Assembly (NCBI GenBank): GCA_040143965.1
Contig: JASJQH010000060.1
Span: forward strand, 1 to 36,038
From: Basidiobolus ranarum
Taxonomy: Eukaryota
Direction: 5' to 3'
Length of the DNA stretch: 36,038 nt
Within the stretch, counting starts at the first letter, position 1; each line of letters starts with the position of its first letter. Position numbers and translations under genes: made by a program. Under the pieces are notes generated by a model that did not search any database, had not been told where the DNA came from, and saw only the letters and a list, made by a program, of their open reading frames with translations. This document shows positions 1,607 through 36,038 of the stretch, piece by piece.

Positions 1607-2873
1607 CAAGATATCATTATCAGGTGCATGTATTTTCTATATCTTGCCAATATGGAACACTACTCGCAGTCACTGTAACTTCACAGTTGGATAACTAATA
1701 GCCGGCACAACTTCACTTGCCCTGAATATTTATTAATCAGCCATGGCTCTATATCCCAAAGTAATTCAATTGATCGAACATGTGTTTATATCGCTAATAA
1801 TCATATCAAGTGTCTGATTATCATGATATCATTAGTAAATATCTATATAGAAACAAGTGCTCTACTAAGGCTTATTTGTAGTATATTATATTAGGGTTAC
1901 CAAGTCAAGAGTAGGGAATTCGGATATGTATTGGATGTGTGAGCAATATATTGGATCAATTAGCGATCACATACAAAATGGTACAGTGAACGAATTTAAT
2001 TATTTAGCATGTAGCAAGGAGAGAGTTAGGTAGAAGTCCCAGAGTGACAGGGATCGACTGTAAGTATTGCTTATTACCAGCTTATTGCTTCAATACATGT
2101 TGTGTCCAATGTATGGCTTCAACACATGTCGTGTTCAACAGAGTCAGGGCTTATCTTTAATGACGGTAGAAGTTTTTTCCGGGAGTGGTACAAAAAATGA
2201 AAGCCACAATATCCGCTCCATGTTCCGGATATTAAGTCAAGATTCAGATATTTTTCAGATTCCCATATGTGCCAAAGTTGAGCCAATCGATAACGACCAT
2301 TGAATCTGACCTGTACCGAAAGTTCGACTATGTAGCACAATTCTTGAGAAAAAATCCACTTTGGTACTAACAATGGCAATATCAGTTGGGTGTGAGTGCA
2401 AGTGCAAGTGGCAAAGTGAACGAATCTTGGTGGAATTGATTAAACTTCTTTTCATGTGATACATGATCGGATAGTTGTAGGAACGTATGTATTGGAGCAT
2501 ATATTGGAGCACATATTGGATCTACCAACTCCCCACGATCAAATTTACCACTATTGGCTGAGAGCCAGCTTTATGTCGTCATATAGTGAATGGTGATTTG
2601 CGTAGGTTTGACGGAATTTTTAGAATGTCATTGGATAATATGCCTGAGTAAAGATAAAGAGGTTCCTTTAAAAGGCGCCTGTGGGATGGCATGTAGCGCT
2701 TAACCCCGCTATCCCCTCGATTTTCTTTTAAAGTTTAGTTGTGTTGTAGTAAAGTGAGGACTGATCTTAATACATATCTTGACCAAGAAACTGGTCCAAT
2801 AACGTTCAACTAAATATTGTACGAACCCACCTCAGTTTGCTATTCATTTTCCAACACATAACGTTATAGAGCA

Positions 2874-5247
2874 ATGACTGCACCTATCATTCAGGGACTC
2901 TTTCAGGGCAGAGAGTTGAATCTTCTGAACATAGCTAAACGCCATTTTCCATTTGGCGTTTGGATCACTCGATACAATCGAAAATGGTTGCTAGGGGATG
3001 TCATTGCAGGTATCACAATTGGTATCATGCTAGTCCCACAGGTTAGTGGAACTTGAATGTTTAATCTTGTTGAGTTGTAATAACTGAGAGTATTTGATTC
3101 TCCTAGGCACTCGCGTATGCGCAGCTAGCGACGGTACCTGTTCAATACGGACTTTATTCCTCATTCCTTGGGATTGCTATCTACTGCCTCTTTGGTACAT
3201 CTAAAGATCTTTCAGTAGGCCCGTCAGCAGTCCTATCCTTGTATATAGGTGTTGCATTAGAGCCTCTGGTATCCCAGGGCTATGATCCTGTTCAATGCGT
3301 CATAACTATGTCGTTTTTAATCGGCTGTTTTTCTCTTGGGCTGGGGATCTTCAAGCTTGGCATTGTTCTTGATCTGATTTCTATCCCAGTCATCAAAGGT
3401 TTTACTGCGGGAGCTTCGGTTACCATTTTCTTCAGTCAGGTGAGATTGCCAATTGAGCTGTACTAGCAAACTATGTAATTATTAAGCAATGGATTTAATC
3501 TGTAGGTTACCTCGTTGCTTGGAATCACTGGCGCCAAAGCACAAGGCCCCATAATAGATGTCATCAAGGCAATTGTCCAGGCACTTCCACGAACAAGGTG
3601 GCAGGATGCTCTTGTTGGATTTAGTGGTATTGCTATGATGATCTTCCTCAAATGGATATCAACCAAATTCAGTCACCTTCATCCCGCTGTTAAAATGATT
3701 GGGATTGCTCGCAGTGCTATTTGTGTGATATTCTTTACTTTGGTCGCTTTTATCATAGCAAAAGTGCAAGGTGAAGGAGTGGTTACTCTTGTAGGAACTA
3801 TTCCCACTGGATTTCCGGATCCTGCTGTGCCCCGGTTAGATCCCGCATTCCTTTCTCAGATCGTCGGTCCATCAGCCATAGGACTTATTGTGGCCATCAT
3901 TGAACATACCGCATCTGCCAGAACCTATGGTAAGATATATAATCACTAAGATGCATTTGATCTATCACTAACATGTCTTTTCTCAGGTCGTTTGAATCAT
4001 TACAAGACTGATAGCAGTCAGGAGTTCGTTGCTGTTGGCGTATGTAATATAATCAACAGTTTCTTTAGTGCTTTTCCGGTTACTGGTGCGTTATCGCGTA
4101 GTGCCGTGATTTCCCAATCTGGGGTTAGAACACCAGCCAGTGGAATTTTCACCAGTGTGGTAGTGATGCTGTGTTTGAATTTTCTACCACCGGTCATGTA
4201 CTTTGTCCCAAAACCAGTGCTGGCTTCTATCATTATGGTCAGCATCATTCCGTTGATATGTGGATACAGTGTGTACAAGGAGCTATGGGTGATTCAAAGT
4301 AACAAAGTGAATGTATTCATTCTCTCAGCTTTATCAAAAACTAACTTCCCATTCATCTAGAATCCGATATGATAGCTTGTCTCTTAGCATTCTTAGTGAC
4401 TATATTTACCAATATCCAAACAGGCATTGAGGTTGCAGTTGGTTTCTCTCTGTTAATCAGCTTACATAGAATAGCTAGACCAAAGTGGCAAATGCTTGGA
4501 GAGGCGGTTGAAGAACCCGATGTATATGTGGATAGATGGTCAAATGACTGGGCCACCTATCCACCACCTCCAGGAATCATTATCTTCCGATTCTCTGAAT
4601 CCATTACTTTCTTGAATGGAGAGTATTTCAAGAATAAAGTGATGAATGCCGCATATATCGCTACCGAGCCAGCAGAGAAATCAGCGGGTTCTTGGGGAGA
4701 GCGCGTCTGGTCTGATGATAGAGATTCTCGTATTGGCCGCATCCGGAATACATTCAACCGACGCCTACCCCCAAATGCAATGACACGACCAGGTGAAATG
4801 AAAATCAAAAGAGTTAATACCGCTGATAGTACCTATGACCGCGAGCATTCCCAGAGTCACATTCCAATCGAGATAAATGGAGAGAAGACAGCCGAACTTC
4901 CGACTTTACGAGCAGCGATTCTAGATTTTAGTGGAGTGAATCAAGTAGATTTCGCAGGTTTACAATGCTTGCTAGACTTGAAGTCACAGCTTACCGATTA
5001 TGCCGGGAATCATGGGTTCGAACTTCACTTCGTAGGGTTAAAATCCAACGTGTTGAGACGTATTGAACCTTCGGGTATTACTAAACACCCAGATGATGGA
5101 CCAGAGGATAATCACCGTTACATTCATATTAGTATCAAGGATGCGTTGAAATGTATTATGGAAGATTGGCATCATCAGACATATCTACCCCCACCTGACC
5201 CAGTCGAGAAGCTCGAAGATATGAGGATTCACATGCATCAGGCCTAA
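2874..5247 (+). CDS. SulP/SLC26-family sulfate/anion permease with C-terminal STAS domain (about 5 exons)
   Basis: GDVIAGITIGIMLVPQ|ALAYAQLATVPVQYGLYSSF, QEFVAVGVCN, FPVTGALSRSAVISQSGVRTP; STAS motifs IIIFRFSESITFLNGEYF and AILDFSGVNQVDFAGLQCL. GT-AG introns at approximately 3042-3106, 3440-3505, 3929-3986 and 4307-4360. Confidence 0.93.
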
Positions 5248-5719
5248 ATTATAAGATGTTAATTATTATATCCCTCTAATATGTATTAGAATCCTAATTT
5301 GAATTACACTATGGCTAACTTGTGTTGAATCCCGCATTTCTTCCATTCATATCTTTCTTTTTATACACACGTGGGTTTACAAGTTAAACGAAATAAGGTT
5401 CATTGTTTTCTAGTAAAGTATCTCATTATAAGCCTCCCTTTTAACCTTAAAGGATATAGACATATGGTGTGAAAATTGCGCCACATAGGCCAGAATTTCC
5501 ATTTAATCTCTCAATGCTGGGCCTTGTTGTAACCCTAAGCATATGTCAATGAATGTTACTCTTAACTCCCATCATATTTACCAGTACCATAGAAACAGGA
5601 TTACTGCATATACATATATATATAGCCTGTTCACGTATTTACCGAGAAACATTCAAACCTTTGTCACCTCATCGTAGGACAAAGTTCACTTCAATATTCA
5701 TTTGTTGATTTGGAATTAT

Positions 5720-6620
5720 AATAATAAAAAAATGGGATCAGCTACACTATTGATATCTTATTGGTAATTCAACGCGCAAATTTCTTACTTGGATGAGCTT
5801 GAGCAATTGAAGTAGAGACGGGAGAGCGAACAGCAAGTACAAGGAGAACCTTATAATGACGGCATGCAAGTTGCTTCCATCATTCTTGAAGCTGCTCAAT
5901 CCCTATTCTAACGACTTTCACTCAATTATGCTGATTCTAGTTAGATATTTGCTAGAGGACTCTATTGAGGGTTGGGTTTTTCCGGTTATGACAGTGACCT
6001 AAGATCCCTTTTATGAGAGTTTAGAGTGGCCAAAAAGAGATCATAAAAACCCACTCGGAGTGGGGGAACTGGGTTAGCAGTTACCCGTCATCACCACACC
6101 TACCCCCAAAATATCTTCAGTTCATCAGTAGAACCCTCAGCCTCCTTACTTCTTAGGTTCCGATTATACACTCGCAAATCTCACCAGGCTCACAACTAAG
6201 GCCTATCTTCCCGGTGAAGATGGCAGGAGCAGAAGTGAAACGACAATAAGTGAAATCAGATCCGTAAAAAATGAGAAAAACCAAGAGATCCTTCCAACTT
6301 ACTTCCAACACCTTGGAAAAGAGTCATAAACTCTAAGTAAGAGCAGTTCGACACACACTTAGGGTTAAGTATCAAATACAACGCCAAAGGTTATCAAGCC
6401 TAAACTTGGTTCCCCTTTGTTTTTTGCGAGGTACCTTCCACTTAAAATGATCAGACCGTCGTTATCCCGTGAAACCGTCAATTTCTTGACAATGAAAAAC
6501 TTCGCCCTCAATAGAATACTTTGTTAACTTACGCAAAAAGAATATCATGGCTCCACAGCCTAGTCTGTAGCGTCCCACAAAAAAAGGACCGCACCCGCCG
6601 CGCGTCACGAGTTATAGCAG
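5720..6620 (-). ncRNA. TER: Candidate telomerase RNA (~0.9 kb); ends approximate
   Basis: Minus strand, in order: terminal helix 5' strand (6578-6526); core-enclosing helix (6517-6494 with 5982-5959; 6480-6474 with 5995-5989); template UAACCCUAA (6367-6359); pseudoknot GAGUGG-GUUUUUAU-GAUCUCUUUU-UGG-CCACUC-UAAACUCUCAU-AAAAGGGAUC (6056-6003); three-way junction (5897-5828); terminal helix 3' strand (5782-5732); U-rich tract (5732-5725). Most helices contain G-U pairs that work only on the minus strand. The ORF track shows no ORF here. Confidence 0.82.
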
Positions 6621-6647
6621 CCAAAGAACCACTTTAATCCATGTAGC

Positions 6648-6655
6648 TATTTATA
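6648..6655 (-). promoter_or_regulatory. TATA box (TATAAATA) upstream of the candidate telomerase RNA
   Basis: Plus strand TATTTATA at 6648-6655, about 70 nt upstream of the first strand of the terminal helix. Confidence 0.55.
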
Positions 6656-6924
6656 CCTCTGCTCATTTGTTTTGATTTGAATATAATGACGAATTAAATT
6701 TGATTGGATTGATAAGACTTAGATCAGTGTATATGCACTAAGAAAAATAAATGTATCATTCAATAGATTTTTATATATACCCTGGGGGCATATCTTTCTG
6801 ACGTTGATGGTATAAACATGACAGAGAGGAAACAAATCACTACCTTCACTCTACTGAAAGCGAACATTCATCCTCTTTCTGCTATAACCAGCACAATACT
6901 TGACTTCTCAGAGGGAATTTACCT

Positions 6925-8514
6925 ATGGAGCAGTCGGTAATTGATACAGTAAAGATCTTGATGTAATGGGTATATTAACACTCCCAAGTCTCTATTTTCC
7001 AATGGCTCGGAAGACAAGGATTTTGATAGTGATTGTACGGCAATATCCGACCCTCGAACGAATCAAATCAATTTAGGTGAAGAAAAAAGGCCGAGTGCTC
7101 AGACGAAAAAAAGGATTCTGGTATGTAGCAAACAATTTGGATGAAAATTACATGTAAATAATCAAATACTTTCAAACAAGTCCAACAATAATGCGATTAA
7201 ATCCATACATAAACGATACCTTTCGTTACCTCTATTGAGAAGTGCACTCAAAGACTCCGAGTTGAACACTATTAGAGAACACGGGTCGGAGGATCTGGAA
7301 GTTTCGGATAATCCAAACTCGGTTGAAACTCTTGAACAAGAGCTATCCACCGAAAACACTCATCAAAATGAAGAGATTCCAACAGGAAATATGGGTCTAT
7401 TAAAAAACAGAGTCCGTGAATTTGACGCGCTTTGCTCTGATATGTTGTTTACTGCTTCCACATATCATCAGAAATATGATCAATATAAATTGGATTTTAA
7501 TCAACAACAGCAAGATTTTTTCAACGATTTAACTACAAAATTCAAAGAAATGCCACTTGAGTTGGGTAACTCTTTATCGGAAGAGATAGGTAAAAATACT
7601 CGGATACTATGACTCTTGAATCCCAACTTATGCCATGATATAGTAAACATGATCAATACAAAGATTCAAGCTATTCAAACCAATGTCAAACACCAGCTAG
7701 ATCTAGAGTGTACTCGTACAAAAGAACAAATCACGGTTCATTTATTATACTTGCAATCCAACATCAACAGTTACTAAGCTCTTTATTCTAGCAAATTACA
7801 GATCAACTAAATCAACTAACACAATATTTCGAGAAGTTTAATGAAAAGTACTTGGACATGCTGGTAATATTGAAAGGTTGTAACCTACTTTGACTTTCCT
7901 TTCATATTCACTTCATATGATGTAGTCCAACCAGTCTGCTATCCAAGAAACTTTAAATCGACTTCGTCATACAGCACAATATCCAATATTTAGTAACAAG
8001 TGAGTGAAACAGCCTCAGATATGTGAACTTATTTCAAAACTAGATCAAATTACATACAGCAATTATCCATTGTTGAATCAGTTGCCCTCTATTGCCTTAA
8101 CTGATTTACAACATCAAGGTGTGTTAAGACAAAAGTTCAATCACCACTACATATCAGATGTTCATTTAGTATAGTTTTTATTGAAGAGATGACTTCAGTC
8201 TCTACCAAATCCTCAACAATCCATAACTTGGCTGAAGATAAATGTCCCAGTGATAGAGAGAATAGTAAGTAAATGAAGAGATTTCATAGATGCCAGGCTG
8301 TACATCATAATGAAAGGCTTTTCTTTAGTCACACGAGAGATATCTGTCTCCTCGGAGTCAACAGTAAGAAATAGGAATGATAGTTTGAACAAGATCAAAT
8401 CCGAAACTTCAAAGAAACGGACTAAAGTAAGCGTTTGTTTCATTAAGAATAAATGATTCATAGTCTCTTGGTTAATTTCTACACTTTTAGAAGCGTCGAT
8501 TATTGATCACTTAG
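6925..8514 (+). CDS. Multi-exon hypothetical protein with central coiled-coil region and basic C-terminus
   Basis: Exon chain with GT-AG introns: MEQS|SLFSNGSEDKDFDSD...KKRIL|SNNNAIKS...EFDALCSDML...SLSEEI|VNMINTKIQAIQTNVKHQLDLE...|QITDQLNQLTQYFEKF...|...SETSKKRTK|KRRLLIT*. Exon structure between 8000 and 8300 is uncertain. Confidence 0.6.
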
Positions 8515-8629
8515 TGTTTTAATCTAAAATAAGACGAATTTAAAAAATCAATTAGACATTTCATAAAATAAATGGGACAATCGCAAAAAATTCGAGAAAA
8601 GTGAAGTCACATGGCAAAAGAAATAGTGG
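8512..8629 (-). mobile_element. Second, inverted copy of the Fanzor-element end (solo remnant)
   Basis: Ungapped manual alignment to the reverse complement of 591-708: 103/118 identical. Begins TAGTGTTTTAATCTAAAAT versus CAGTGTTTTAATCTAAAAT. Weaker gapped similarity continues to ~8658. Confidence 0.85.
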
Positions 8630-20808: not shown

Positions 20809-23800
20809 ATGTCTCAATACCTTCACAACGCCGAGAACGGCGGGTACCTTCCCGAAGATGTAACACACTTGGACCTGAAGAATCTTACAGAGGACTCTTT
20901 TACTCATTGCATACAAGGCCGTTTTGAGCAAGCTCAACTATATACCAAAATCAACAATTCGGCCTTAATAGCTGTCAACTCATTTGGACCTGAGAAGGAA
21001 AACACTGCTATTTCTCAACAGTATATTGAAGCCTGCTATCGTGATACCAGCGGAAACCCCCATAATTTACCATCACATATATACGAATTGGCGGCGAAAG
21101 TGTACCTTCATCTTCGTCGTACAGGAGTCGATCAGTCAATAATTTTAAGGTATGCTTCATGTTTGTTATCTATGTGTCACAAGGAGATGCTGATCTGATT
21201 TCATATTCCGCATTGTTTATTTAGTGGTGTCACCGGGAGTGGTAAAAGTGAATCATACAAAAAATTATTGAGCCAATTCTGTAATCTGGCTGCTTACGGA
21301 AAAAAAGAAACCAAATTACCCGGACAAATCCAAAATATTCAAGTAGTGTTGGAGGCATTTGGTAACGCGATGACTACCCAAAATCAAAATGCATCCCGCT
21401 ACTGTATGTACCAAGAAATTCAGTACAACGCACGTGGTAGAATCTCTGGAGCCAAGACTCTGACGTTTTCATTGGAAAAGTATCGGGTTACTCACACACC
21501 ACTGCACGAAAGAAATTTCAATTCATTCTACTATCTCCTTGCTGGTTTATCGGCGGATGAGAAGAGTGCTTTGGAGTTGTCAGAGCCAGAAGATTATCAT
21601 TATCTATCCCAAACACAACGCTTCAAAATAGACGGTGTCGATGACGGTGACAAGTTCCGCGAGCTCAGAGCAGCGATGAAGTCATTAGGCATCAAAACCT
21701 CTGTACAAACGAATGTCTTCAGGTTATTGACGGGTATCTTACACTTGGGTAACATCATATTTGAGGATCACTCGGAGCAAGAATGCTCCAACGTGAAGAA
21801 CACCGAGTTGTTGCAATTGGTTGCTGAAATATTTGGTGTCGGTTACACTCCCTTGATGGAGTCGCTGATTTTCAAATCTAAATTGGTAGGGAAGGACGTT
21901 TGCACCGTCTACTTGGACGCCAAAACCGCCGGAAAGCAACGAGACGCTTTGGCAAGAGCGTTGTATTCTCTCTTATTTACCTGGATAGTGGAGGCCATCA
22001 ATACCAAAGTCTGTAATGAATCGCCTACCAATTTCATCGGATTACTAGACCCCATAGGATTCCAAAATATGGAGCACAATAGATACGAGGAGTTCTGCAT
22101 CAACTTCACTAACGAGAAAATTCACAACTTCATTCTGAAGCATATGTTTGATCCTAGCATCGGAATGAATTCTGAACTTGCTGCTGATGGAGTGACTATC
22201 CCCAACATTCTGTACTCCGACAACCAGTCATGTGTTGACATGATCATTGGTAAGGCTAGCTTGATCGAAGTGATTGAGGAGAATGGTATTTCAGAAAGCG
22301 AAGAAGATTCCAAAAACATCAGTTTAATAATTGATCAACGTTTTGGCAAACATTCGTCGTTTCATTCTACCCAGACCCATAATCAATTCGGAATCAAGCA
22401 CTATGCTGGTACTGTCGATTATGACACCGATAACTTTGTCGAAAAGAACAAGGACATTCTTGCTGCGGATTTTGTTTCTCTATTCCGTGGTAGCACACCA
22501 AGCACTAATGCTTTCGTCACTGAGCTATTCAGCAGTGATGCTGTAGAAACCGAGTCTCATCCACGAAGCAAAGATACTATCATTGCTGCTCAACAGCTAA
22601 CCAAGCCTACCAGACAATCAAGCCGACGTCACCCAAAGAAGCCTGATGTCAAAAAGGAGAGCTCCAAGAGTAGCATTCCTGGAGTATTGACCCAATTGGA
22701 CTCTACGTTGAATGACTTATTTGACACAATGAATGAAACTCTTATCTGGAACGTATTCAATATTAGATCGAATCTATCTCAATCGCCTTATGAGTTCGAT
22801 GCCCACTGTGTCCGGAATCAAATCGTTGGATTATCCTTAACCGAGATTGCATGTCGTCTAGTGAATGATTATACCGCTAGTTTGGAATTTTCCGAATTCT
22901 TGGAGCGTTATCAACCAATCATAGAAGCGTTGCGATTGGACAGCAGTAAAGATTCACGTCAACTCGTAATGGCTGTGAAGAATATCAGTGGCTGGAATGA
23001 CAAGGATATGTATGTTGGTGCCCAAGAACGTGTTTTCCTATGCGAGCACGTTTGGAAAGAGTTGGAAGATAGTTTAAGGGCGATGGAGAAGGATGAAAGA
23101 AATGCTCAAAAAGGTAGAGCTTCATCTCTCGGTCATGATGGTGAATCCTTGGTATCCGGGTATAATGGTCATGACAATACATCCATGCCACCCAGAAGTA
23201 TGCCTTATGATACAGGCAGCTACAACAGTGAGGAGGATTACCGCAGCCAAAATATGCCAAGCGGTTACGGTCAATACGCCAGAGAAGATAGCGAATATGG
23301 AAGCGAGTTTGATTTTAGAAATCAACCTGGGAACGAAATAGAGTTGACCAAAGCCAGTAAAGGCGACTCTAAGGGAGCGCCGGTTGTTGAAACTCTTCCA
23401 CTCTCAGCAGTTCGTAGAAGTTGGCTATGTGTTACAAAATTATTTACTTGGTGGATTCCTTCGTTTACTCTTTCTTGGTGCGGCATGAAAAGGCCAGATG
23501 TTCAATTGGCATGGAGAGAGAAAGTCACCCTATGTATTTTCATCCTAATCCTTTGGGGAGTTATTATATTCATCATTGTAGGCCTTGGGCTAATTTTGTG
23601 TCCCCGTGTGCACTACTACAACGCTACAGATGTCGCTTTTCACCAAGGAAAGGGGGATTTGTTTGTCTACATGTATGGCAAAGTTTACGATGTTTCAATT
23701 TTCGCAGATTCAGATCACGGCCGAACCTCCGTTTCAACAGGTGTACCATATAGTGAAATGTCATCAATGATCGTGGAGGTCAATAATGACATTACGCCAT

Positions 23801-26493
23801 ACTTTGAAATTCCACTTCATGTGCAATGCCCTGGCTTGGTGGCTGAAGGATCAACACTTCAAATGAAGTCTGATATTGTATTACCAATTACAGTACCACA
23901 TCAAACTGGGATATTTCAAACAAATCCAAACAGTCCCATGAAAAATGACAATTGGTTCTATACCAACGCTCTGCCGTTCCTTCGTCTCTCCACCAAAGGT
24001 GATGTTGCTTGGGAGGTAGATCATATTCGATACATGTCCCAACAAGGGTATAAAAAGTGGGGTATTATCAATGGGCGAGTGTATGATCTTACTTCTTACT
24101 TTAATACTATTGATGACCCTATGAATGTTAACGTTCAACAGTTTCTCGATCCGCAAATTAAACAACTATTTCATCTGAGTAGCACGTTTGGGCCTGACTT
24201 GACTAAAGAATGGAATGAGAAAGTACACTTAGACTCTCAGACGCGTGCCATGAATATGGAGTGCTTAGATAATCTGTTTTATATAGGTGTGGTAGATACA
24301 CGCCACGGCATCAAGTGCAAATTGGCTCATTGGATTCCGGTTGCATTTGCTATCGTACTATGCTCGGTTATTGGATTGAAATTCTTAGCAGCTCTTCAGT
24401 TAACTTCGAAGCGGAAGCCAGAAGATCTAGATAAATTTGTCATTTGCCAAGTGCCCTGTTACACAGAAGATGAAGATTCTCTACGTAAGACGATCGACTC
24501 TTTAGCTGGACTCCAGTACGATGATAAGAGGAAATTGATCTTTTTTATTGCTGATGGTATGATTATTGGAAGTGGTAATGACCGGCCTACCCCCAAAATT
24601 GTATGTGATATCTTGGGTGTGGACCCAGACTATGACCCTGAACCATTCAGCTTTAAGAGTATTGGAGAAGGCAATCAGCAACACAACATGGCTAAGGTGT
24701 ACTCTGGTTTATACGAATTTGAGGGACATGTGGTCCCATATATCGTGGTGGCGAAAATAGGAAAACCCAGTGAGCGTTCACGTCCAGGTAATCGTGGTAA
24801 ACGTGATTCCCAAATCATTTTGATGAACTTCTTGAACCGTGTCCATTTCGATAGTGAAATGTGTCCCTTGGACTTGGAGATATATCACCAGATTAAGAAT
24901 GTCATTGGTGTAAACCCCGCCTTCTACGAGTACATTTTAATGGTGGATGCTGATACTGAGGTTAAACCCGACTCGCTCACCCGCTTGATTGCATGTATGA
25001 CACATGATGCTAGAATTATCGGACTTTGTGGAGAAACACAGCTTGCCAATGAAGAGTTCTCATGGGCTACTATGATTCAGGTGTATGAGTACTATATTTC
25101 TCATCACCTTGCTAAAGCCTTCGAGAGTCTTTTCGGCAGTGTTACTTGCTTACCAGGATGTTTCTGTATGTATAGAATTCGTACTGTCAAGGGCTCGCCA
25201 TTGATCATTAATAATGAAGTGATTAACAACTACTCTGAGAACAATGTGGACACACTGCACAAGAAGAATCTGCTTTCACTTGGTGAAGATCGTTACTTGA
25301 CCACATTGATGTTGAAGCACTTCCCGCAATACAAGATGAAGTTTACCTCTGATGCTATTTGCTATACAGTGGCTCCCGATAAGTGGTCAGTTCTGCTTTC
25401 ACAGCGTCGTCGTTGGATCAACTCTACTGTTCACAACCTATTCGAGTTGCTATTCCTTTCTGATCTTTGCGGTTTCTGTTGTTTCTCTATGCGTTTTGTC
25501 GTATTCCTCGATCTTTTCGGAACAATCATCATGCCTGCCACAGTTGCATATCTAGTTTATTTGATTATTGCCGCGATTATTGATCCCAACAGTTTAAGTA
25601 CCGTTGCCTTAATCATGTTCGCTGTGGTTTATGGTCTTCAAGCTGTTATTTTCATTTTGAAACGCGAATGGCAACATGTTGGCTGGATGATTATTTACAT
25701 CTTGGCCATGCCAATCTTCTCATTCGCCATTCCTATCTATGCTTTCTGGCATTTCGATGATTTCTCCTGGGGTAATACTCGTATGATTCTTGGTGACAAA
25801 GGTGAGAAGAAGGTCGTATCCAATGAGGCTCCATTTGATCCAAAGTCTATTCCCATGAAGAAGTGGAGTCAATTTGAACAGGAAGCATGGGAAGCTGGTT
25901 CTACTACCTCTAAAGATCATTCATCTAGATCCAGATCTAGAAGCAGATTTGAAGGCTCCCAATATGATGGATCGCAGTATCGTTCTCAGTCACCTTACGC
26001 AGGCTCCCAATATGGAGGATCACAAGTCTCTGCCAATTACTATGATAAACAGTCCAGTTACTACCAAGGTCATGATCAACGCCCTGCGTCTCATCTTTCT
26101 CCCTCTGTTATGCCCAGCCCTGGTTTTAATGGGTCGAACCATGATGGTTACATCGACTCTCGCACTTCTCTAGCATATTCTCAATACGGCCATGATATGT
26201 CTCCAGATAGACATTCTGTTGCTCCCCAATCTCCTTACGACTATCCTGTCCACCAGATGCCGATGGCTATGCCCTCACCAAGACCTGAAAGTGCTATGTC
26301 CGGAGGTGGATACTATCCTACTGATGAAGAAATCCTTGGCGAGATTCGACATATATTGTCGACTGCTGACCTGATGACTGTCACAAAGAAGCAAGTGCGA
26401 GAACAACTTGCATTGGTCTTTGGGGCTGACATGAGCCCTCGCAGGGATTTCATCAACAACTCTATTGAATTAGTTCTTCAAGGTCAAATCTAA
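20809..26493 (+). CDS. Chitin synthase with N-terminal myosin motor-like domain (class V-type), cytochrome b5-like region and C-terminal DEK_C domain
   Basis: One intron at 21150-21224 restores the P-loop SGVTGSGKS. Motifs LEAFGNAMT, NRGKRDSQ, LMVDADT, CLPGCF, LGEDRYLT, QRRRW, FSWGNTR; C-terminal PTDEEILGEIRHILSTADLMTVTKKQVR. Confidence 0.96.
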
Positions 26494-27182
26494 GCAAAGA
26501 TGAATATTTAGATAGCATCATGGTTGGGCCAGAATATTCAATCCTCTCATTCACTAATTACATATATTTTAACGAGATTTCAGTTACATCTTTCGTCACG
26601 CTTTAGCACACTATCCCACAATGTATTTTCCCCTATTTTTTGCCATCTTTTCTTAATATATCGTCCTCATCCTCATCTTCATTCTCATCGACCTCTAAAT
26701 CATTTTAACCCATGATTTTACTTGTAAAACCTTTATTCATGACATGTAGTATTTATTATTACACAAAACTGTGGATAACTTGAATAAAAACATTTGAGCT
26801 GATTCTTTTTCTTACTCTTTGCCTTGCTCTGTTTCGTACGCATAAGTGGAGATGCAGAGTGTGGAATGGGATCAATGCAGAGTGTGGAATGAGAACAATG
26901 TGTAGAGTAATGATGACATCAGTTCCCATTATCTTTGTGTACAGCTCGGAGATTTTTTACCAGTTTAACAGGAATAACATCAAACTAAGCTTTAGGGTGG
27001 GAAGCATCAATTTTACTAAATTCCCATCAGAATTTGCCTTTCCATAAACAATAAGGAGAATTCTAATTTCGACATTGGGTCAGTCAGATCTTTCTTTCTG
27101 CTTCTTTCCTTCCTCATGGCTCATCCTGTGGTAGTGCTGAAATAATCGCTGATTCAGTCATTCTAAATAAGTATATTTAGTT

Positions 27183-27286
27183 TCTTCGATGCCACCGTCA
27201 GCTCGTACCAATATTCTTGGATGCTACCATCAGCCCGTATTCATGCTCTTAGATGTCACCGTCATATTCTTTGATGCCACAGTCAG
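27183..27286. repeat. Four degenerate ~19-bp direct repeats (TCTTNGATGYYACMRTCA)
   Basis: Copies start at 27183, 27215, 27247 and 27268. Confidence 0.75.
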
Positions 27287-30250
27287 TATTCCTGGACCAT
27301 TCATTCCATCATTCGGTTTTACTAACCCAAAGTGTATTACTGACGGTAAATAGAGATGCTCGATCAACCTGCCCCACACCAGCTTAAAGGGTCCATGATG
27401 AAGTAAGACACGCATTCTTCTTGAGGATAAACTCTTTGTAGAATCCAACCAAAACCTCAGTGCATTAAATCCAGGATTAAATATAAACATATATGGCAGA
27501 ATTCTCCATACTTGTGAGAAAACCATGATAGAATAATGTGGATGTAAATATACTTGGATGTACATATCACTCATCTTCATCTTCACCTGCACCTGCACCC
27601 AACCCCACTCAACAATCGATTACGAATATGAATACGTAGGATATCTGTTCCTCTAATGATCAATTGGCTGAGGGGTGAGAAGATGGTGAGGAAAGGGCCA
27701 CCTTGTCTGTCACACAAACTTCAGTACCCGGTTTTTAGTCTAGATGGACTCGCTTTTCTTATAGTACCCTTAGGCAGCTAACTTCGAGTCATTTTAATGT
27801 ATAAAAATCAATTAGATGTGGTTAGTATGTGCGCATAGTGTCTAGGATGGCCTCCGAAACCAGAAATGACCACGTTTGAGTAAACAAAGAGAGTGATGTA
27901 ACATCCAATATATTGTTGGTGTGAATGGCTGAGGACATAAATGGTCTTGAAAAATAGGGGATGGGATCCTGAGGAAATTTGGGGGCAGCTTCAAGGCAAG
28001 TGGTCTGATTCCTAGGTAACAGCGTATGGCCAGATTTCGTAGTAAAATTCACACATCTCATCTCACCAAGCTTATTGATCAACATTGTGTAGCAAGCAAG
28101 ACCATTCATTGTAACTCCTCCAGGTTGAATCAACACCATCTAAATGAGGGCCGAGGCACAACCCAGCTGACTTCTCATGGCTTTGATGGAAGCCGATACT
28201 CATAGATCTGTCTGCTCCACATTGGCCAAGATTCAAATAGGAGTAAATTCTTACAAATAGTTAGTAATTCGCCAACCTTTGGTTCTAGACACATTCCGTG
28301 GAAAGCAACTAGTCGTCATATTATCAAGCGAAAGCGAGCTGAATGGACGATCTGCATTAAAGATGAGACAATATTTACTTAATTTCCCGAAGATCAGAGA
28401 TTATTCGATTAGAAGGGTTTGGTAGAAGAGTAAGCCTGCACTTTGACTAATGTAATATAGGCAGCCCTATACGACGTCGCAGTATGAATTCTAATGGGCA
28501 CAGATGATACATCAACAATTGGCGTCATCCCGAGAAATCCTCGGTGCCCCCTAGACAATGAGTTGATATGCAAACAATCAGCAGTCACGATATGGTAATA
28601 GTAGTAATCAGCAAGTCGTGATATGGTAATAGTAGTGGCAGTAGTAGTGACAGTGACATTAATGACCTTGGACCCACTGAGTGTCAGTGGCGTGACAATA
28701 ATGGCTATTGACTTGGTGGGTTCTATTCTTAGATTCCAGGGAAAACTCTCTTTGATCAAGATGAGATCCGAAATAGTTAAATTGGGTCAGAATGAATTAT
28801 CCCCAATCTGAGGCGTAACCTTTGTATTGGTTGAGGTGGATGACGAGAACAGAGTAGTATATATATGATGGTAGGCACTATATCAGCTGATAGTATATAT
28901 ATATAGGTATGTGTATAATGAAAAGACCGTACAAATCAGTGCCGATATCGCCACGTTCTACAATATCAATAAAAAATGACAGTGGAAACGAAACCACGCT
29001 GAAACATTGTCTCGTATAGCCTGTCATCCAAGTCCCAGTCCACCATAATTCGTCTATAATGGTCGGTGTGGCAGCTGAGTTAGGAATAGTTATCTGGGCA
29101 CAAGTTTAAGGTGCACTTTACATGCAAGAAGCATTCCAAACAAAGATTCAACATTGGATTGGATGTCGGCTACTTATCTCCGGTTCCTGAACGAATTCAA
29201 TGGATTAACATGGCTAATTAGACTCAGAGGACGATTGATCCTTATTTTGGTTAGTTGGTGAGGTCGGGGCTATAGGGATATTAATGTGCTCAGTATAACG
29301 TAACTACTTTCCTGGAAGATAATATCCTCGATTGGAGTAGTCTACATCAGTGGGTGGTGAGCAAATCATTTCTCTGGAGAGAGTCAACATTAATGCAGGC
29401 GAGGTGTTACCAGAATATTGGTCGAGTGCTTCGTCTGTATAGAAAAACTGCATTGAAGAGTAAAAGGGGTATTTGCCTTATCCATGGGTGGCTATGAACC
29501 TATACTCTAAGTGACGGCTTATAGGATTGAGTGATTCAGTGCATGCAGGCTATGATGAAGTGGCCAAGCTTTTGTGCCTACCAAATGGTAGAGTTGGCTT
29601 ATTCTGTCTACACTTAGGGTTAGGGTGGTTTTAGACTGGAATCCGCGCACTTGCTTTGATTTATACAATAACAAACTGGAATACCCACCTTGATTTATTC
29701 AATAGCAAATGAAGAATGTGGGAGAGGGAATATGAAACCCAGCCACAATTTCAGGTTATGTTGATTGGTGATGTCAAAAGAGGCCTTCCCCAACTTTTCC
29801 AGTCGACATGGTTACATTCAATAATTCTTACCTTCCAACTACTCTAGACTCTAAATTCAGAAACAATTCACGAAAAAAAAGCAGATTCGAAAGAACATAT
29901 TTCCGGTTTGCATGGCTTAGCTGTCCTGTAATAATGATTACAAGTGCCAACTAACAACAGAGATAAAGCGGCCTCACGTGCCTCGTCTTTTGAGAAAATC
30001 CAACTGGCAACTAGGATTCGAATGAAGAATGCAAGCTGAACATCGCCGCTTGTTTATATTGATCGATGCAGATAGTGTTCTGGTTTATTTCCTGGTTTGA
30101 AGGGTCGAGATAAGTATTCCTTACTCAATTTTGAACAGCATTAATATGGAAATAGATATTCATTAAGCAACTCTCATGTCACATGACTTCGGCTATTTCC
30201 ATTTGGACTATCCTTCTAGGGGTAGTAGACAATGGGCAATCGATTTGGGA

Positions 30251-30452
30251 AATAAGAAATGGGAATAAGAAATGGCAATAAGAAATGGGAGATGGCTTAA
30301 TATCAACATGACGAAGGTGTAAGGGTTAGGATTGAGTAGTGATGGGAGCGATATGAAAGGTGATGATTAGTGACGATGATTAGTAGCTACAATGCTGGCT
30401 AGATTAATGCTGGCTAGATTAATGATGGCTATCGACGCTGGCTAGATTAATG
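30251..30452. repeat. Two short minisatellites: AATAAGAAATGG x3 (30251-30288) and AATGCTGGCTAGATT x~4 (30391-30452)
   Basis: Read directly from the sequence. Confidence 0.8.
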
Positions 30453-31257
30453 GCGGTGTAGAATGGCTCTGGTGATCAGTATAAATCATTGCTCACTATT
30501 CGCACTCACACCCAACCAAATTGATCAACATTCATGGAAAAGGGGCTAAGTTCCGAATGAAATCATACTTCTGCGTAGACGCATATTAGATTGTTATCCA
30601 TGTGTGGCTTACAAGTGAAAGATGAACAGATCTATTTCTCCTCCACGACGTCCAGCGAACTGAGCAAATAGTCCGATGCTCATTAAGGATAAATAAGGCT
30701 AAATTGGGTTGGAGCTCTAATACAGGATATTGATTATTGATGGGATTCATCACTGCTTGAGTGGCGATTGGTTCAGGCGATTGGTTCAGCAGTGCCGTGG
30801 AATCAGTGGCCAAGCTACTAAATAGAATCCTGTATACCAACTATGACCGAGTGGCTAAATTGAATACCAACTGTATTGTAGAATGACTAGAGAATGGTGA
30901 AACCATGTTGGTCGCTTATGTTTTTGTTATTGTTAGCATAGGGTGGGGCCAGGAAATACATATATAAGAGGGAAGCAGAAGCTATCCTCATTCAATTAAT
31001 CCACTCGACCGGATTTTAAAAAGATCAACTGTACGCTGCACAGTTCACGCTTGACTATTCACGCTCCTTTCGCAAGTTTTTTTTTAAGTCTTCCCCACAC
31101 ATATCGCTTATTTCCATACTTTTACAGAAAGTAGCGAACCTCGTTTCTATTGACCTATTCTTCATATATTATCACATCGTTTTCCTTCTCGGCTTCTTAT
31201 ATATTCTCTGTCTCTCCTTTTGGACTCAAAACTTCCTCTCTCGAAATATCTCATAGA

Positions 31258-32220: not shown

Positions 32221-33889
32221 GGTGAACTGGGAAGTGTCCCAACTCTGTAGATTCCAACCCCCCCCACAAAATGTTTATTGTCGCTTTTCTTTATTGCATG
32301 TTAGATAGTCACCGTTACCTTGCCTTTACCATTACCCCCTCAGCCTCGATAGAGTTGAGCATTTTTTTATTTGTATAATTAGACGTCATGAAAATCTCTA
32401 CCACAGTGATGAATCCTTTTTGTTCATATAAAGTGTGATTTTTATCTAGCCATTGCTTTACCAATCTAATTCAATTAGTAATCATATGAAGAGGAAGTGG
32501 AAGTGGAAAAGGAAGTGGATAATCAGGGTCAGATGAACCTTTATCATATGAAAACGATCCTCATGTTTTGGAAGATCGCTTGGGCTATGAGCTCGGTTGT
32601 TTCATTTATGATAAGAAAGTTCACCTTTCACATGTCGTTGATGTTAGCATGGTTCTAGAAAATATGGCGCACCTTGGTTAATCCTGGTTACGGCGTAGAC
32701 CTATCCTTTCTTTCTGGACACTCCCTGCGTAAAGCTATTCTTTCGCACTCACCAGCCAGGTCGGACATATACTATTTAATTAATCGCCTCATTTGTAGCT
32801 GATTCAAGATTTGGTTTCTTTGGTAATTGGAACTGGTGGGAAGCAAAAATCATATGAAGATCACGCTCAAGCAGGTTACCCATATCAATGAGATTTTCCT
32901 TCGTGAGACCAGTTTAGCATTTCGATAAAGAGGAGGGAGTCAGTGTAGAATAAGAGAGGGAATCGTTTCTAACTCGAGAATCCAAAAGGAAGTCGTTATC
33001 TTCATTTACTATATTTGGTTTGCACTATCTTCGGTTCCGACGGATCGTGATCAGTCCGCAGATGCTACTGGGGGATGTTTAGCGTGACTGTATGTTTGTA
33101 TATAAACTAAGAACGCTCGTTCAAGCATTTGAAATCAAATCTGAATTCTAATTACTAACTGGTTCTTCGGGGAATTGTATTTGTTAGTAGAGAAGGTGCG
33201 TATATGGATACGGGATATTGAGTTGTATGCCAAAAAAGAAATAAGCTTAACCATATATAGATAGGTCAATATAGATAGGATAATCCATGTAAGGAGAGGC
33301 TGTCGCTGCTGGAGTTCGTTTTCCGCCCTATACATCCCTTGATTTGTTTCTGCTTTCTGGAGTACGTACAAGTAATGATGCGTGCATGAGCGATGAGTTT
33401 TAGTGGGGCTTTCGTGGGGCTTTCGTGATGGTTATTCATATGATCCGTAACATTCATGTGATCTGTAGGGTTAGGGATAGTAACATTGGAGCGTATATTA
33501 TGAAAAGATATTTCCAATCTGAGAAGTATGAAGTGTTTCAAGAATCCCTAGGAATCTGTTCCTCACCTGTTCTCTTGTTCTTACTCACATTCGCCGGTGT
33601 TACAATGAGTAATGTGCATTAGAGTCAATAGATAGTGTTTCAATGGTTGATATGATCTTCACAATCATGCCGTGACTGGGATAAGCAATTGATTCTATTG
33701 TATGTTTATTGTAAGCTTGGGCTGTGATGTATATAAGCGTGAGATAAAGTACTTGGATGATATAAAGACTATGAAAACCCATCAAAAAAGCCGAGTTGGA
33801 TGAAAATAAACTCGTTTAATGAAGTATTTCTATATGGTTTGTATTATGACTTGCTTCTTTCGTACTATCTATGTTGCTACCTCCTAAAC

Positions 33890-36038
33890 CTACTTCGGGT
33901 TATTTTCATTCGCATTGCTAATTGTCTGCGTAACCTCATCTTTATCATTCACATCTGGGATCTTTTGACTTGTTTCTGAGCTGTTCGTATCCTGTCCTAC
34001 TTCATTAGCTCCCTTCGTATTTTGTAACGTCTCCAAGTCATGATTAGTACCATCAGCTACAGGAGAATAAGAGATTAGTTGATTGGATATTATTCTCCTC
34101 TAGAAATAGCCTCAATTACCAGTTTGAGATGAAGGCGAACCTTCGTGTGTCTGTGCATGATTTCCCTCGTCCTTACTTGAATTCTGTTTGACAGCTTTGG
34201 GTGATGTTATTGTACCAATGGAATCGTCAATCTGTCCATTAAGAATATTTTCACGTTCTCGACGAAGTTCATGAAGTCTACTAAGTGATTTGAATAGTTC
34301 CTGACGCTGATACTTTTGCTTCTCATTTACTAAAGCCGACTCAGGATTGTTTTCGTTAATGTTCGGCAAATCGATCTTTGACGTTTGAGGACTTTCTTTG
34401 GTAATGGTAGGGGATGAGGTTGATGAATTGGTTGATTGCCCACAATTTTTCGGATTTTCTGATAAGGGTGAAGATACTGGTTCATCATCAAGTATGATTA
34501 CTGGCTGGGTATTATCCACAGGAGTTTGATCAATTATGCCTTGTTGAGATTGTTGTTGTGGTGCTTGTTGTTGGAGCGGTTGTTGTGGCAATTGATTCTG
34601 CTGCGACTGTTGCTGTAATTGTGATGATTGTCGCTGTGGTGATTGTATCTGTGGGGATGGCTGTTGTGGCAATTGCTTCTGTGGCGGTTGTGGATGTGGT
34701 TGTTGTGATTGCTGTGACGATTGTTTCTGTTGTGACTGTTGTTGTAGTGATTGTTGCAGATGCCATTGGAGTTGTTGTTGTGAAGGATGTTGTTGTGGCT
34801 GTTGCTGTAGTGAATGTTGCAACGATTGTTGGAGTTGCTGTTGGAGTGAGTTATTCAACAATGGTAACGGGGGGCGTTGCTGCTGAAGATATTGCTGTTG
34901 CAATTGATGTACCTGCTGTGGGCTCATCTGATTTAAGAGATATTGTTGCAATTGTCTCAATTGAGTTTGTTGAGTCTGATTCAAGTGTGGAGCATTCTCC
35001 TGAATTTGCTTCTGTAAATATTGATGGAGTATTTTTGCTTGTTCTTGACGATGTGCACCTGAAGTTTGGTTGTTCTGTATTTGGTTTAATAGATTTTGCA
35101 TTTGTTTCAAATGATTTCGCTGCCTTTCAGCAGCTTGTAACTGCTTTTGTTGCGGCTGATTGGAATGATATTGTTGCATTTGCTGTAGCAGAGCATGCTG
35201 TACTTGGTCAGGGAGTGGTTTTTCAGCCTGTGCTTGTTGAAGTTGGGAGACTTGGAGCTGATATTGTTGCATTTGTTTTAATTGCTTTTCTTCGGCTTGC
35301 GCAGATCCAGATGGATTGGGGTTCATTTGTTTTATAAGGTGTTGTAGTTGATTTAGTTGAGCTCTTTGAGCCGACTCTTGCCTTGACTGATACTGCATCT
35401 GATTGAGCTGTGCCATTTGGGCTTGGGGTGAGTTTTGTTGATTTAGATTTGGTAAGGACTGATTATAATTCACCGGTCTAAAGTTGTGCTGCGTTTCCTT
35501 CGACTTATCTAGCCGCTGTTTGTTTGCTTGGGGTTGGTTGACAAAAGTTACAGGACGCTGAGGAAATTGCGACGCACTTGATTGAAAGTTGTGAGATGTG
35601 GAGGTATTGAATGCTAGGTTCGGGAGAGAGGCGGCATGAACCTGTTGAGGAGACCGATAGGTAGCAGCGGATGCCGATGAGCTAGGCAAAGAAGCAACGT
35701 AGGTTTGCTGTGGAGATTGATAAGCATTAGTAAGCTTCGATGAACCAGGCAAAGTACCAATGTGAGTCTGTTGTGGGGATCGATAGGCAACAGTAGGCAT
35801 TGTTGAACCAGGTAAAGAGACAAACTGGGTCTGTTGTGGAGATCGATAGGTAGTAGATGTCGTTGACCCGGGTAGAGAAGGGACATGACTCTGCTGTGGA
35901 GATCCAAAAGCAGTTACTTGTGAAGTTGAGCCGGGCAGTGAGCCAAACTGAGCCTGTTGTGGAGATCGATAGGTAGTAGATGTCGTTGACCCGGGCAGAG
36001 AAGGGACATGACTCTGCTGTGGAGATCCAAAAGCAGTT
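33890..36038 (-). CDS. 3' part of a glutamine-rich low-complexity protein with 20-aa tandem repeats (5' end outside the window; final exon uncertain)
   Basis: Open frame from the window end to ~34119, then a GT-AG intron and an exon ADGTNHDLETLQ...NENNPK*. Extensive Q-rich tract. Confidence 0.75.
35620..36038 (-). repeat. Coding 60-bp tandem repeat (~7 units in the window) with a 120-bp higher-order period
   Basis: Units align line by line (60 nt). 35834-35918 is nearly identical to 35954-36038. Peptide consensus [YF]xSPQQxxxxSLPGSxxxxx. Confidence 0.92.

Follow-up and report, generated by a model that had tools for sequence, protein, structure and literature searches.

A candidate telomerase RNA gene in the early-diverging fungus Basidiobolus ranarum

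Telomerase RNAs (TERs) diverge so fast that each lineage needs fresh discovery. The plan described for them comprises enclosing helices, a template boundary helix, a pseudoknot whose U-rich loop takes part in a triple helix, and a P5/P6/P6.1 junction (PMC3592445 and PMC4993307). According to a 2025 paper, the fungal TERs known so far are confined to Ascomycota and, as a recent addition, some Ustilaginomycetes (PMC12506658). Among the papers listed in our literature search, none describes a TER from Zoopagomycota, Basidiobolomycota, Mucoromycota or chytrids, save for an unconfirmed suggestion of a ciliate-like telomerase RNA in Lichtheimia corymbifera, which was compared with the 150-nt RNA of Tetrahymena paravorax; its authors report no homologue in any other basal fungus (PMC4133162). 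Here, we analyze a 36,038-nt stretch of DNA (the window; the whole of contig JASJQH010000060.1, assembly GCA_040143965.1) from Basidiobolus ranarum, and propose from its modelled structure that the minus strand between ~6620 and ~5725 probably encodes the telomerase RNA of this organism, an RNA of ~0.85–0.9 kb. An earlier note on the same DNA had taken the host for an early-diverging fungus, which agrees with the placement of B. ranarum in Basidiobolomycota, outside Dikarya (NCBI taxonomy).

The candidate resembles the Neurospora crassa RNA, NcrTER (2049 nt; Qi et al. 2013, PMC3592445), in its putative 9-nt TTAGGG-type template, at least two predicted core-enclosing helices, template boundary helix, pseudoknot with a U-rich upstream loop, and template-distal three-way junction with a long P6 followed by a short P6.1. 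It is, however, under half the size (~0.85–0.9 kb against 2049 nt), and NcrTER has no detectable sequence or covariance-model similarity to it. The earlier note had given the Neurospora template as UAACCCUAA, a string with 0 occurrences in the main text of PMC3592445. Vertebrate telomerase RNAs share the topology of an enclosing helix, template, pseudoknot and P5-P6-P6.1 junction (PMC3592445, PMC4993307), whereas the candidate is without a 3′ H/ACA domain (no hairpin-hinge-hairpin with ACA was seen in the RNA) and without the L6.1 consensus, and its template boundary is predicted to lie in an adjacent helix and not, as in vertebrates, in the enclosing helix. In fission yeast TER1 the boundary helix likewise overlaps the template, and an L6.1 loop of 4–5 nt is tolerated (PMC3592445, PMC4993307); the candidate differs in its putative, regular TTAGGG-type template. 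The basidiomycete TERs of Ustilago maydis (PMC9564094) and, putatively, Malassezia (PMC12506658) have template/pseudoknot and CR4/5 domains, as the candidate appears to. The Lichtheimia suggestion also concerns a non-Dikarya fungus, but a short ciliate-type RNA with an architecture unlike that of the candidate (PMC4133162).

A telomerase RNA is the best explanation of the locus, given the expected order of its elements and a rarity assessed by comparison with shuffles, real windows and other loci with the template motif. Read 5′ to 3′, the enclosing helices come first; a helix adjoining the template, the mostly unpaired template itself and a pseudoknot follow, and then a three-way junction and the terminal U-tract, an order known from fungal and vertebrate RNAs (Table 1).

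Table 1. Features of the candidate telomerase RNA locus and related motifs in the window (MFE, minimum free energy; probabilities are predicted pair probabilities)
Feature	Position	Strand	Sequence or basis
TATA box	6655-6648	minus	TATAAATA, read directly; ~70 nt upstream of terminal helix first base
G+C-rich 5′ leader hairpin	6612-6590	minus	MFE helix ACUCGU/GCGGGU, 6612-6607 / 6598-6593
Terminal helix, 5′ strand, multi-segment	6578-6523	minus	pairs with 5773-5732, probabilities mostly 0.8-1.0
Core-enclosing helices, 5′ strands	6517-6449	minus	13 bp, 7 bp, then GACGGU + GAUC; pair with 5999-5959, probability 0.94-1.0; inverted repeat I8
Template-boundary-like stem-loop arm	6445-6365	minus	MFE: UUAAGUG (6445-6439) / UACUUAA (6371-6365) + inner helices
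Putative 9-nt template	6367-6359	minus	UAACCCUAA, read directly; would specify GGGTTA/TTAGGG repeats
Predicted element between template and pseudoknot	6352-6087	minus	MFE structure
H-type pseudoknot	6056-6003	minus	descriptor search + pair probabilities; just 5′ of enclosing-helix 3′ strands
Pseudoknot stem S1	6056-6051 / 6029-6024	minus	GAGUGG / CCACUC, 6 bp
Pseudoknot stem S2	6042-6033 / 6012-6003	minus	GAUCUCUUUU / AAAAGGGAUC, 10 bp, one G-U, ends UUUU/AAAA
Pseudoknot loops		minus	L1 GUUUUUAU (U5 loop); L2 UGG; L3 11 nt
Core-enclosing helices, 3′ strands	5999-5959	minus	MFE + pair probabilities
Template-distal arm ending in three-way junction	5952-5776, junction 5898-5827	minus	MFE structure
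P5-like stem	5898-5891 / 5834-5827	minus	probability ~0.6
P6-like hairpin	5884-5855	minus	probability ~1.0
P6.1-like hairpin	5854-5839	minus	AUAAGG UUCU CCUUGU; probability ~1.0; stem up to 6 bp
Terminal helix, 3′ strand	5773-5732	minus	MFE + pair probabilities
A-U7-A tract directly after terminal helix	5733-5725	minus	read directly
Other telomere-like motif loci	1891-1899(-), 5530-5538(+), 29614-29626(-), 30322-30330(-), 33466-33476(-)

The 901-nt stretch analysed, 5720–6620, is non-coding. Between 5650 and 6700 there are 22 stop-to-stop open reading frames (ORFs) of at least 30 aa, the longest reaching 65 aa, and a Pfam scan at E ≤ 0.1 returned no match for any of the 12 scanned ORFs that overlap the stretch; neither did a 13th, just outside the locus at 5553–5705. 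The 63-aa ORF over the three-way junction has no related protein by shared words in the protein collection. This agrees with the earlier description of the locus as an apparently intergenic gap, and a coding or transposon-protein remnant was rejected in view of the 12 ORFs without a Pfam match.

We folded 6620–5720 with ViennaRNA, taking the MFE structure and pair probabilities, all of which are predictions. The minus strand reaches an MFE of −283.2 kcal/mol against −245.0 ± 7.9 for 20 shuffles (z −4.83; 0 of 20 as stable), and the plus strand has a z of −2.83. As a control on real sequence, the folding energies of 176 windows of 901 nt on both strands were regressed on G+C and G+U, with the 170 windows overlapping the locus by less than 300 nt as background. 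The candidate has a z of −3.36 against a background minimum of −2.03, making it the most structured 901-nt window tested in the contig, and the plus strand of the locus a z of −1.9. G-U pairs make up 51 of 312 pairs in the minus-strand MFE structure against 25 of 266 in that of the plus strand, an excess more in keeping with a selected minus-strand RNA than with a palindrome in the DNA.

The same folding bears on a second explanation, that the locus is a decayed foldback or inverted-repeat mobile element whose arms give the helices and whose telomerase-like details arose by chance. The helices are indeed imperfect inverted repeats in the DNA (I8), the plus strand is itself more stable than its shuffles, and a 117-nt inverted repeat (I1) flanks the wider region. 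However, no part of 5720–6620 is repeated elsewhere in the window except as short A/T-rich matches; in place of two long arms there are short, interrupted ones in three nested levels; and both the stability and the G-U pairs, twice as many on the minus strand, are asymmetric between strands. We regard a mobile element as highly improbable. Of the 28 inverted-repeat pairs in the window, 25 were listed; just two of these are close pairs, namely I8, the enclosing helix, whose separate arms lie within 3 kb of each other, and a TA-rich palindrome whose arms overlap.

The predicted telomerase RNA fold is organized by two sets of long-range helices. For the set that encloses the core, the earlier note had named three pairings. 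Two are recovered, namely the 13-bp helix AUUCUAUUGAGGG (6517–6505) / CCCUCAAUAGAGU (5971–5959), with one G-U pair and a probability of 0.95–1.0, and the 7-bp helix GUUUUUC (6500–6494) / GAAAAAC (5982–5976), at 0.94–0.95. The third, UGACGGU (6480–6474) / ACUGUCA, is complementary but has a probability of 0, as ACUGUC pairs with a second GACGGU copy at 6460–6455 (probability 0.98). The terminal helix fares similarly: GUGGGA (6578–6573) / UCCCAU (5737–5732) has a probability of 0.82–0.96 and GCUACA / UGUAGC (6571–6566 / 5746–5741) one of 0.95–0.97, with the last pair at 0.52, while UGAUAU(U)CUU / AAGAUAUCA (6547–6538 / 5759–5751) is present in the MFE structure. The fourth proposed segment, GCGUAAGUU / AAUUUGCGC, has a probability of 0 and is replaced by neighbouring pairings.

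Within the enclosing helices, the 9-nt template named earlier is found as TAACCCTAA on the minus strand. Its CCCUAA has an unpaired probability of 0.74–0.83 in the thermodynamic ensemble and the first two template nucleotides are paired, so that the model presents a largely single-stranded template inside the core. Helix 6445–6439 / 6371–6365 closes an 80-nt arm that abuts the template at its 5′ edge and overlaps it by 3 nt, and the model thus places a fungal-type boundary helix immediately 5′ of the template. Fungal boundary elements are helices immediately upstream of the template, and in fission yeast they overlap it (PMC4993307); by analogy with this fungal template boundary element, the arm may set the template boundary. 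Yeast TERs also carry an arm at a position matching the element predicted between template and pseudoknot (PMC4993307).

The earlier note had claimed a pseudoknot downstream of the template, giving no coordinates, and we locate one between the template and the 3′ strands of the enclosing helices. A strict descriptor (S1 of at least 5 bp; L1 of 4–12 nt with U4; S2 of at least 8 bp with a U3/A3 junction end; L2 of at most 4 nt; L3 of 4–25 nt) finds 1 locus on both strands of the window (72 kb), which is this pseudoknot. In dinucleotide shuffles of the window, the descriptor matched at 1 locus among 30 windows and at 3 among 200. With a lenient descriptor there are 40 loci, and the candidate ties for the top at 16 bp with the weaker-featured 19892–19825. 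S2 has a probability of 0.79–0.95, and the U-rich upstream loop of the predicted pseudoknot could form U·A-U triples. In described TER pseudoknots, the second stem and an upstream loop of 4–5 uridines together make up a triple helix (PMC3592445). A further likeness to vertebrate RNAs is the 8-nt U-rich loop that precedes a stem ending in U-A pairs. The human counterpart lies in P2b/P3 and the uridines of J2b/3. The GAGUGG of S1 can pair upstream or downstream in the model and could act as a conformational switch between hairpin and pseudoknot.

The separate arm ending in a three-way junction, also described in the earlier note, is present in the MFE structure, and its long hairpin followed by a short one is the order expected for CR4/5. 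Two 4-bp hairpins with NUNGN loops, at 6585–6573 and 6113–6101, were considered as P6.1; both lie outside the junction, are weak and are held by G-U pairs, and we take them as chance, since about one such hairpin is expected in 900 nt by our estimate.

Several points weigh against a telomerase RNA. The earlier identification as the TER of this organism is supported in part, by the non-coding, strand-specific structure and the order of elements, but not by the P6.1 loop, two of the helices or the rarity of the motif. The P6.1-like loop is UUCU, not NUNGN, on a stem extendable to 6 bp, in which it departs from NcrTER; the junction arm holds no hairpin of 4 bp with an NUNGN loop, the P6.1 consensus of vertebrates and Pezizomycotina (PMC3592445). 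What failed here is that strict form and not the TER family, because budding yeasts, which are without the NUNGN consensus, and fission yeast, with L6.1 loops of 4–5 nt, deviate from it too (PMC3592445). The two helices of probability 0 are complementary but are not favoured pairings. In the pseudoknot, the S1 hairpin (−8.4 kcal/mol) scarcely differs from a competing hairpin at 6064–6050 (CCCACU/AGUGGG; −8.1 kcal/mol), S1 has a probability of 0.04 in the nested ensemble, which cannot represent pseudoknots, and the pseudoknot junction contains three unpaired nucleotides, in which it departs from vertebrate and filamentous-fungal TERs, NcrTER among them (PMC3592445). The descriptor counts also flatter the pseudoknot because the descriptor was written after seeing the example. 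Finally, Rfam gave 0 matches for the whole window at the gathering score and 0 for 5300–7000 at E ≤ 10. Its telomerase RNA models are vertebrate, ciliate, Saccharomyces and ascomycete. This covariance-model failure weighs little, because the lineage is so distant that no match is expected.

The template motif itself is also not above chance for this genome when taken alone. CCCTAA-series 9-mers occur 12 times at 6 loci in the window against 1.49 expected from base composition, an ~8-fold enrichment, and longer matches lie elsewhere, of 13 nt at 29626–29614 and 11 nt at 33476–33466; for these reasons the template match is weak evidence by itself. The six loci are enriched and, judged by ORF maps, mostly between genes; telomere-like boxes are thus frequent in the intergenic DNA of this contig and may serve a TTAGGG-binding factor as a cis-element. 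TTAGGGTTA, whose G-strand is the minus strand, stands at 5530–5538, ~190 nt past the U-tract that ends the candidate and beside the TATATA-rich stretch described below, between the candidate and the sulfate permease gene. A TATAAAT precedes the copy at 29.6 kb by 35 nt, and 13 nt of this copy (TAACCCTAAGTGT) recur in the candidate template region. No paper on Basidiobolus telomeres was among the matches listed in the literature search, and TTAGGG occurred in none of 15 papers listed out of 594.

The motif counts also bear on a third explanation, in which the locus is a different structured non-coding RNA, or structured intergenic DNA, with a common telomere-like motif such as sites for a TTAGGG-binding factor. 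The enrichment to six loci in 36 kb, the copy only 190 nt away on the plus strand, the 13 nt shared with the 29.6-kb copy, the departure from the P6.1 loop consensus and the want of an Rfam match all fit it. It needs, however, three coincidences within the contig's most structured 0.9 kb: an unpaired motif on the right strand, the sole strict pseudoknot in 72 kb, and a three-way junction. The other five motif loci, folded in the same register as controls, are moreover not structured (z −0.57 to +1.7). We consider this explanation unlikely, and a telomerase RNA remains our preferred reading.

Candidate signals for expression of the telomerase RNA lie at both ends. The TATA box claimed earlier is read directly upstream (TATAAATA) and is presumably an RNA polymerase II (Pol II) promoter element; a second TATA-like run lies near 6768–6782. 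The basidiomycete TERs, in contrast to a candidate with its own TATA box, have been reported, or proposed, as processing products of a protein-coding mRNA precursor (PMC9564094, PMC12506658). A consensus scan places the leader hairpin at 6604–6590, and it is followed by a U7 run at 6585–6579. This early T7 run and the T5–T7 runs within the structure disfavour transcription by RNA polymerase III, which we reject by inference.

At the 3′ end, the A-U7-A tract may be an Sm/Lsm-like site or a 3′-end signal. The classical Sm consensus carries a G/R that the tract lacks, and fission yeast TER1 has a U-rich Sm-type site near its 3′ end. The tract resembles, with no exact match, the AAUUUUU of Ustilaginales and Malassezia, a U-rich Sm-like motif that marks the 3′ end of basidiomycete TERs (PMC12506658). 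Unlike in NcrTER, no 5′ splice site directly follows the U-tract, and unlike in fission yeast TER1, no spliceosomal cleavage signal was recognised beside it. A TATATA-rich stretch at 5600–5624, between the candidate and the neighbouring permease gene, could serve 3′-end formation.

Building on sequence elements whose order, thermodynamic support and rarity are shown above, we infer a model of how the RNA is transcribed, where it ends, how TERT binds it and copies its template, and how the triple helix forms. Pol II would start downstream of the TATA box at 6655–6648, and the RNA would close on itself through the terminal helix, with the template core formed by three stacked enclosing helices. 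The stem-loop at the 5′ edge of the template would act as its boundary. TERT would copy the single-stranded UAACCCUAA into GGGTTA repeats, the 3′ UAA aligning the DNA end and UAACCC being copied. The pseudoknot would lie beside the template, with the U5 loop in the groove of the UUUU/AAAA end of S2 as U·A-U triples, and the P6/P6.1-like hairpin pair at the junction would give TERT a second place to bind. The model assigns the A-U7 tract either to binding of Sm or Lsm proteins or to marking of the 3′ end.

The candidate gene is convergent to a sulfate permease gene. The plus-strand ORF ending at 5247 encodes the C-terminal portion of a SulP/STAS sulfate permease, and its best match, with 100% identity over 98% of the query, is "Sulfate permease 2 [Basidiobolus ranarum]". 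Other contigs of B. ranarum carry at least four more paralogues of this permease, with 51–74% identity; two have 71% and 74% identity, the 71% one being on a 38,105-bp contig. These paralogues suggest duplicated segments, which might carry a second copy of the RNA gene. The locus could then be a TER paralogue or pseudogene with the active gene at another copy. We hold this to be quite improbable, since the template, the enclosing helices and both pseudoknot stems are intact and the TATA box is in place. Searches for relatives gave 48 pattern matches, none confirmed, for the last 300 aa of the permease against metagenome contigs, and 0 matches each for two 22-nt pieces searched as exact patterns, one of the pseudoknot against metagenome contigs and one of the template region against prokaryotic genome contigs.

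The arms of the 117-nt inverted repeat I1 (591–707 / 8513–8629) are 88% complementary and bracket 7.8 kb with the sulfate permease gene, the candidate RNA gene and the next gene; they may be two copies of a small repeat element. Further along the window, the stop-to-stop ORFs on both strands of 26500–31130 (~4.6 kb) do not exceed 129 aa, which is unusual for a contig with long-exon genes, and a Rfam search of 26.5–31.2 kb gave only 3 matches, all far below the gathering score. The 13-nt motif copy within it, 29626–29614, was considered as a rival TER site and rejected, with structure z values of +0.19 (451 nt) and +0.79 (901-nt register) and no strict pseudoknot. Upstream of this region, 21199–26493(+) is an uninterrupted 1764-aa ORF resembling, on visual inspection, a myosin-motor chitin synthase. 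At the window's end, 34112–36037(-) holds a 641-aa open-ended ORF, very rich in Q, S and P, with 63-nt tandem repeats (families D1–D4).

Taken as a telomerase RNA, the locus is probably the first TER from a non-Dikarya fungus, a compact RNA of ~0.9 kb whose template/pseudoknot core is vertebrate-like and whose junction is of the P5-P6-P6.1 type, with a boundary helix that adjoins the template in the fungal manner and a 3′ end formed by a plain U-tract with no H/ACA domain. If this is true, the core common to animal and fungal TERs was already present at the base of the fungi, and the NUNGN L6.1 loop is less universal than thought. Once verified, the Basidiobolus TER would anchor the fungal side of the animal–fungal comparison and reveal which core elements are ancestral, including the type of boundary helix, the triple-helix pseudoknot, P6.1 and the 3′-end module. 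It would also provide a seed for covariance-model searches across early-diverging fungi.

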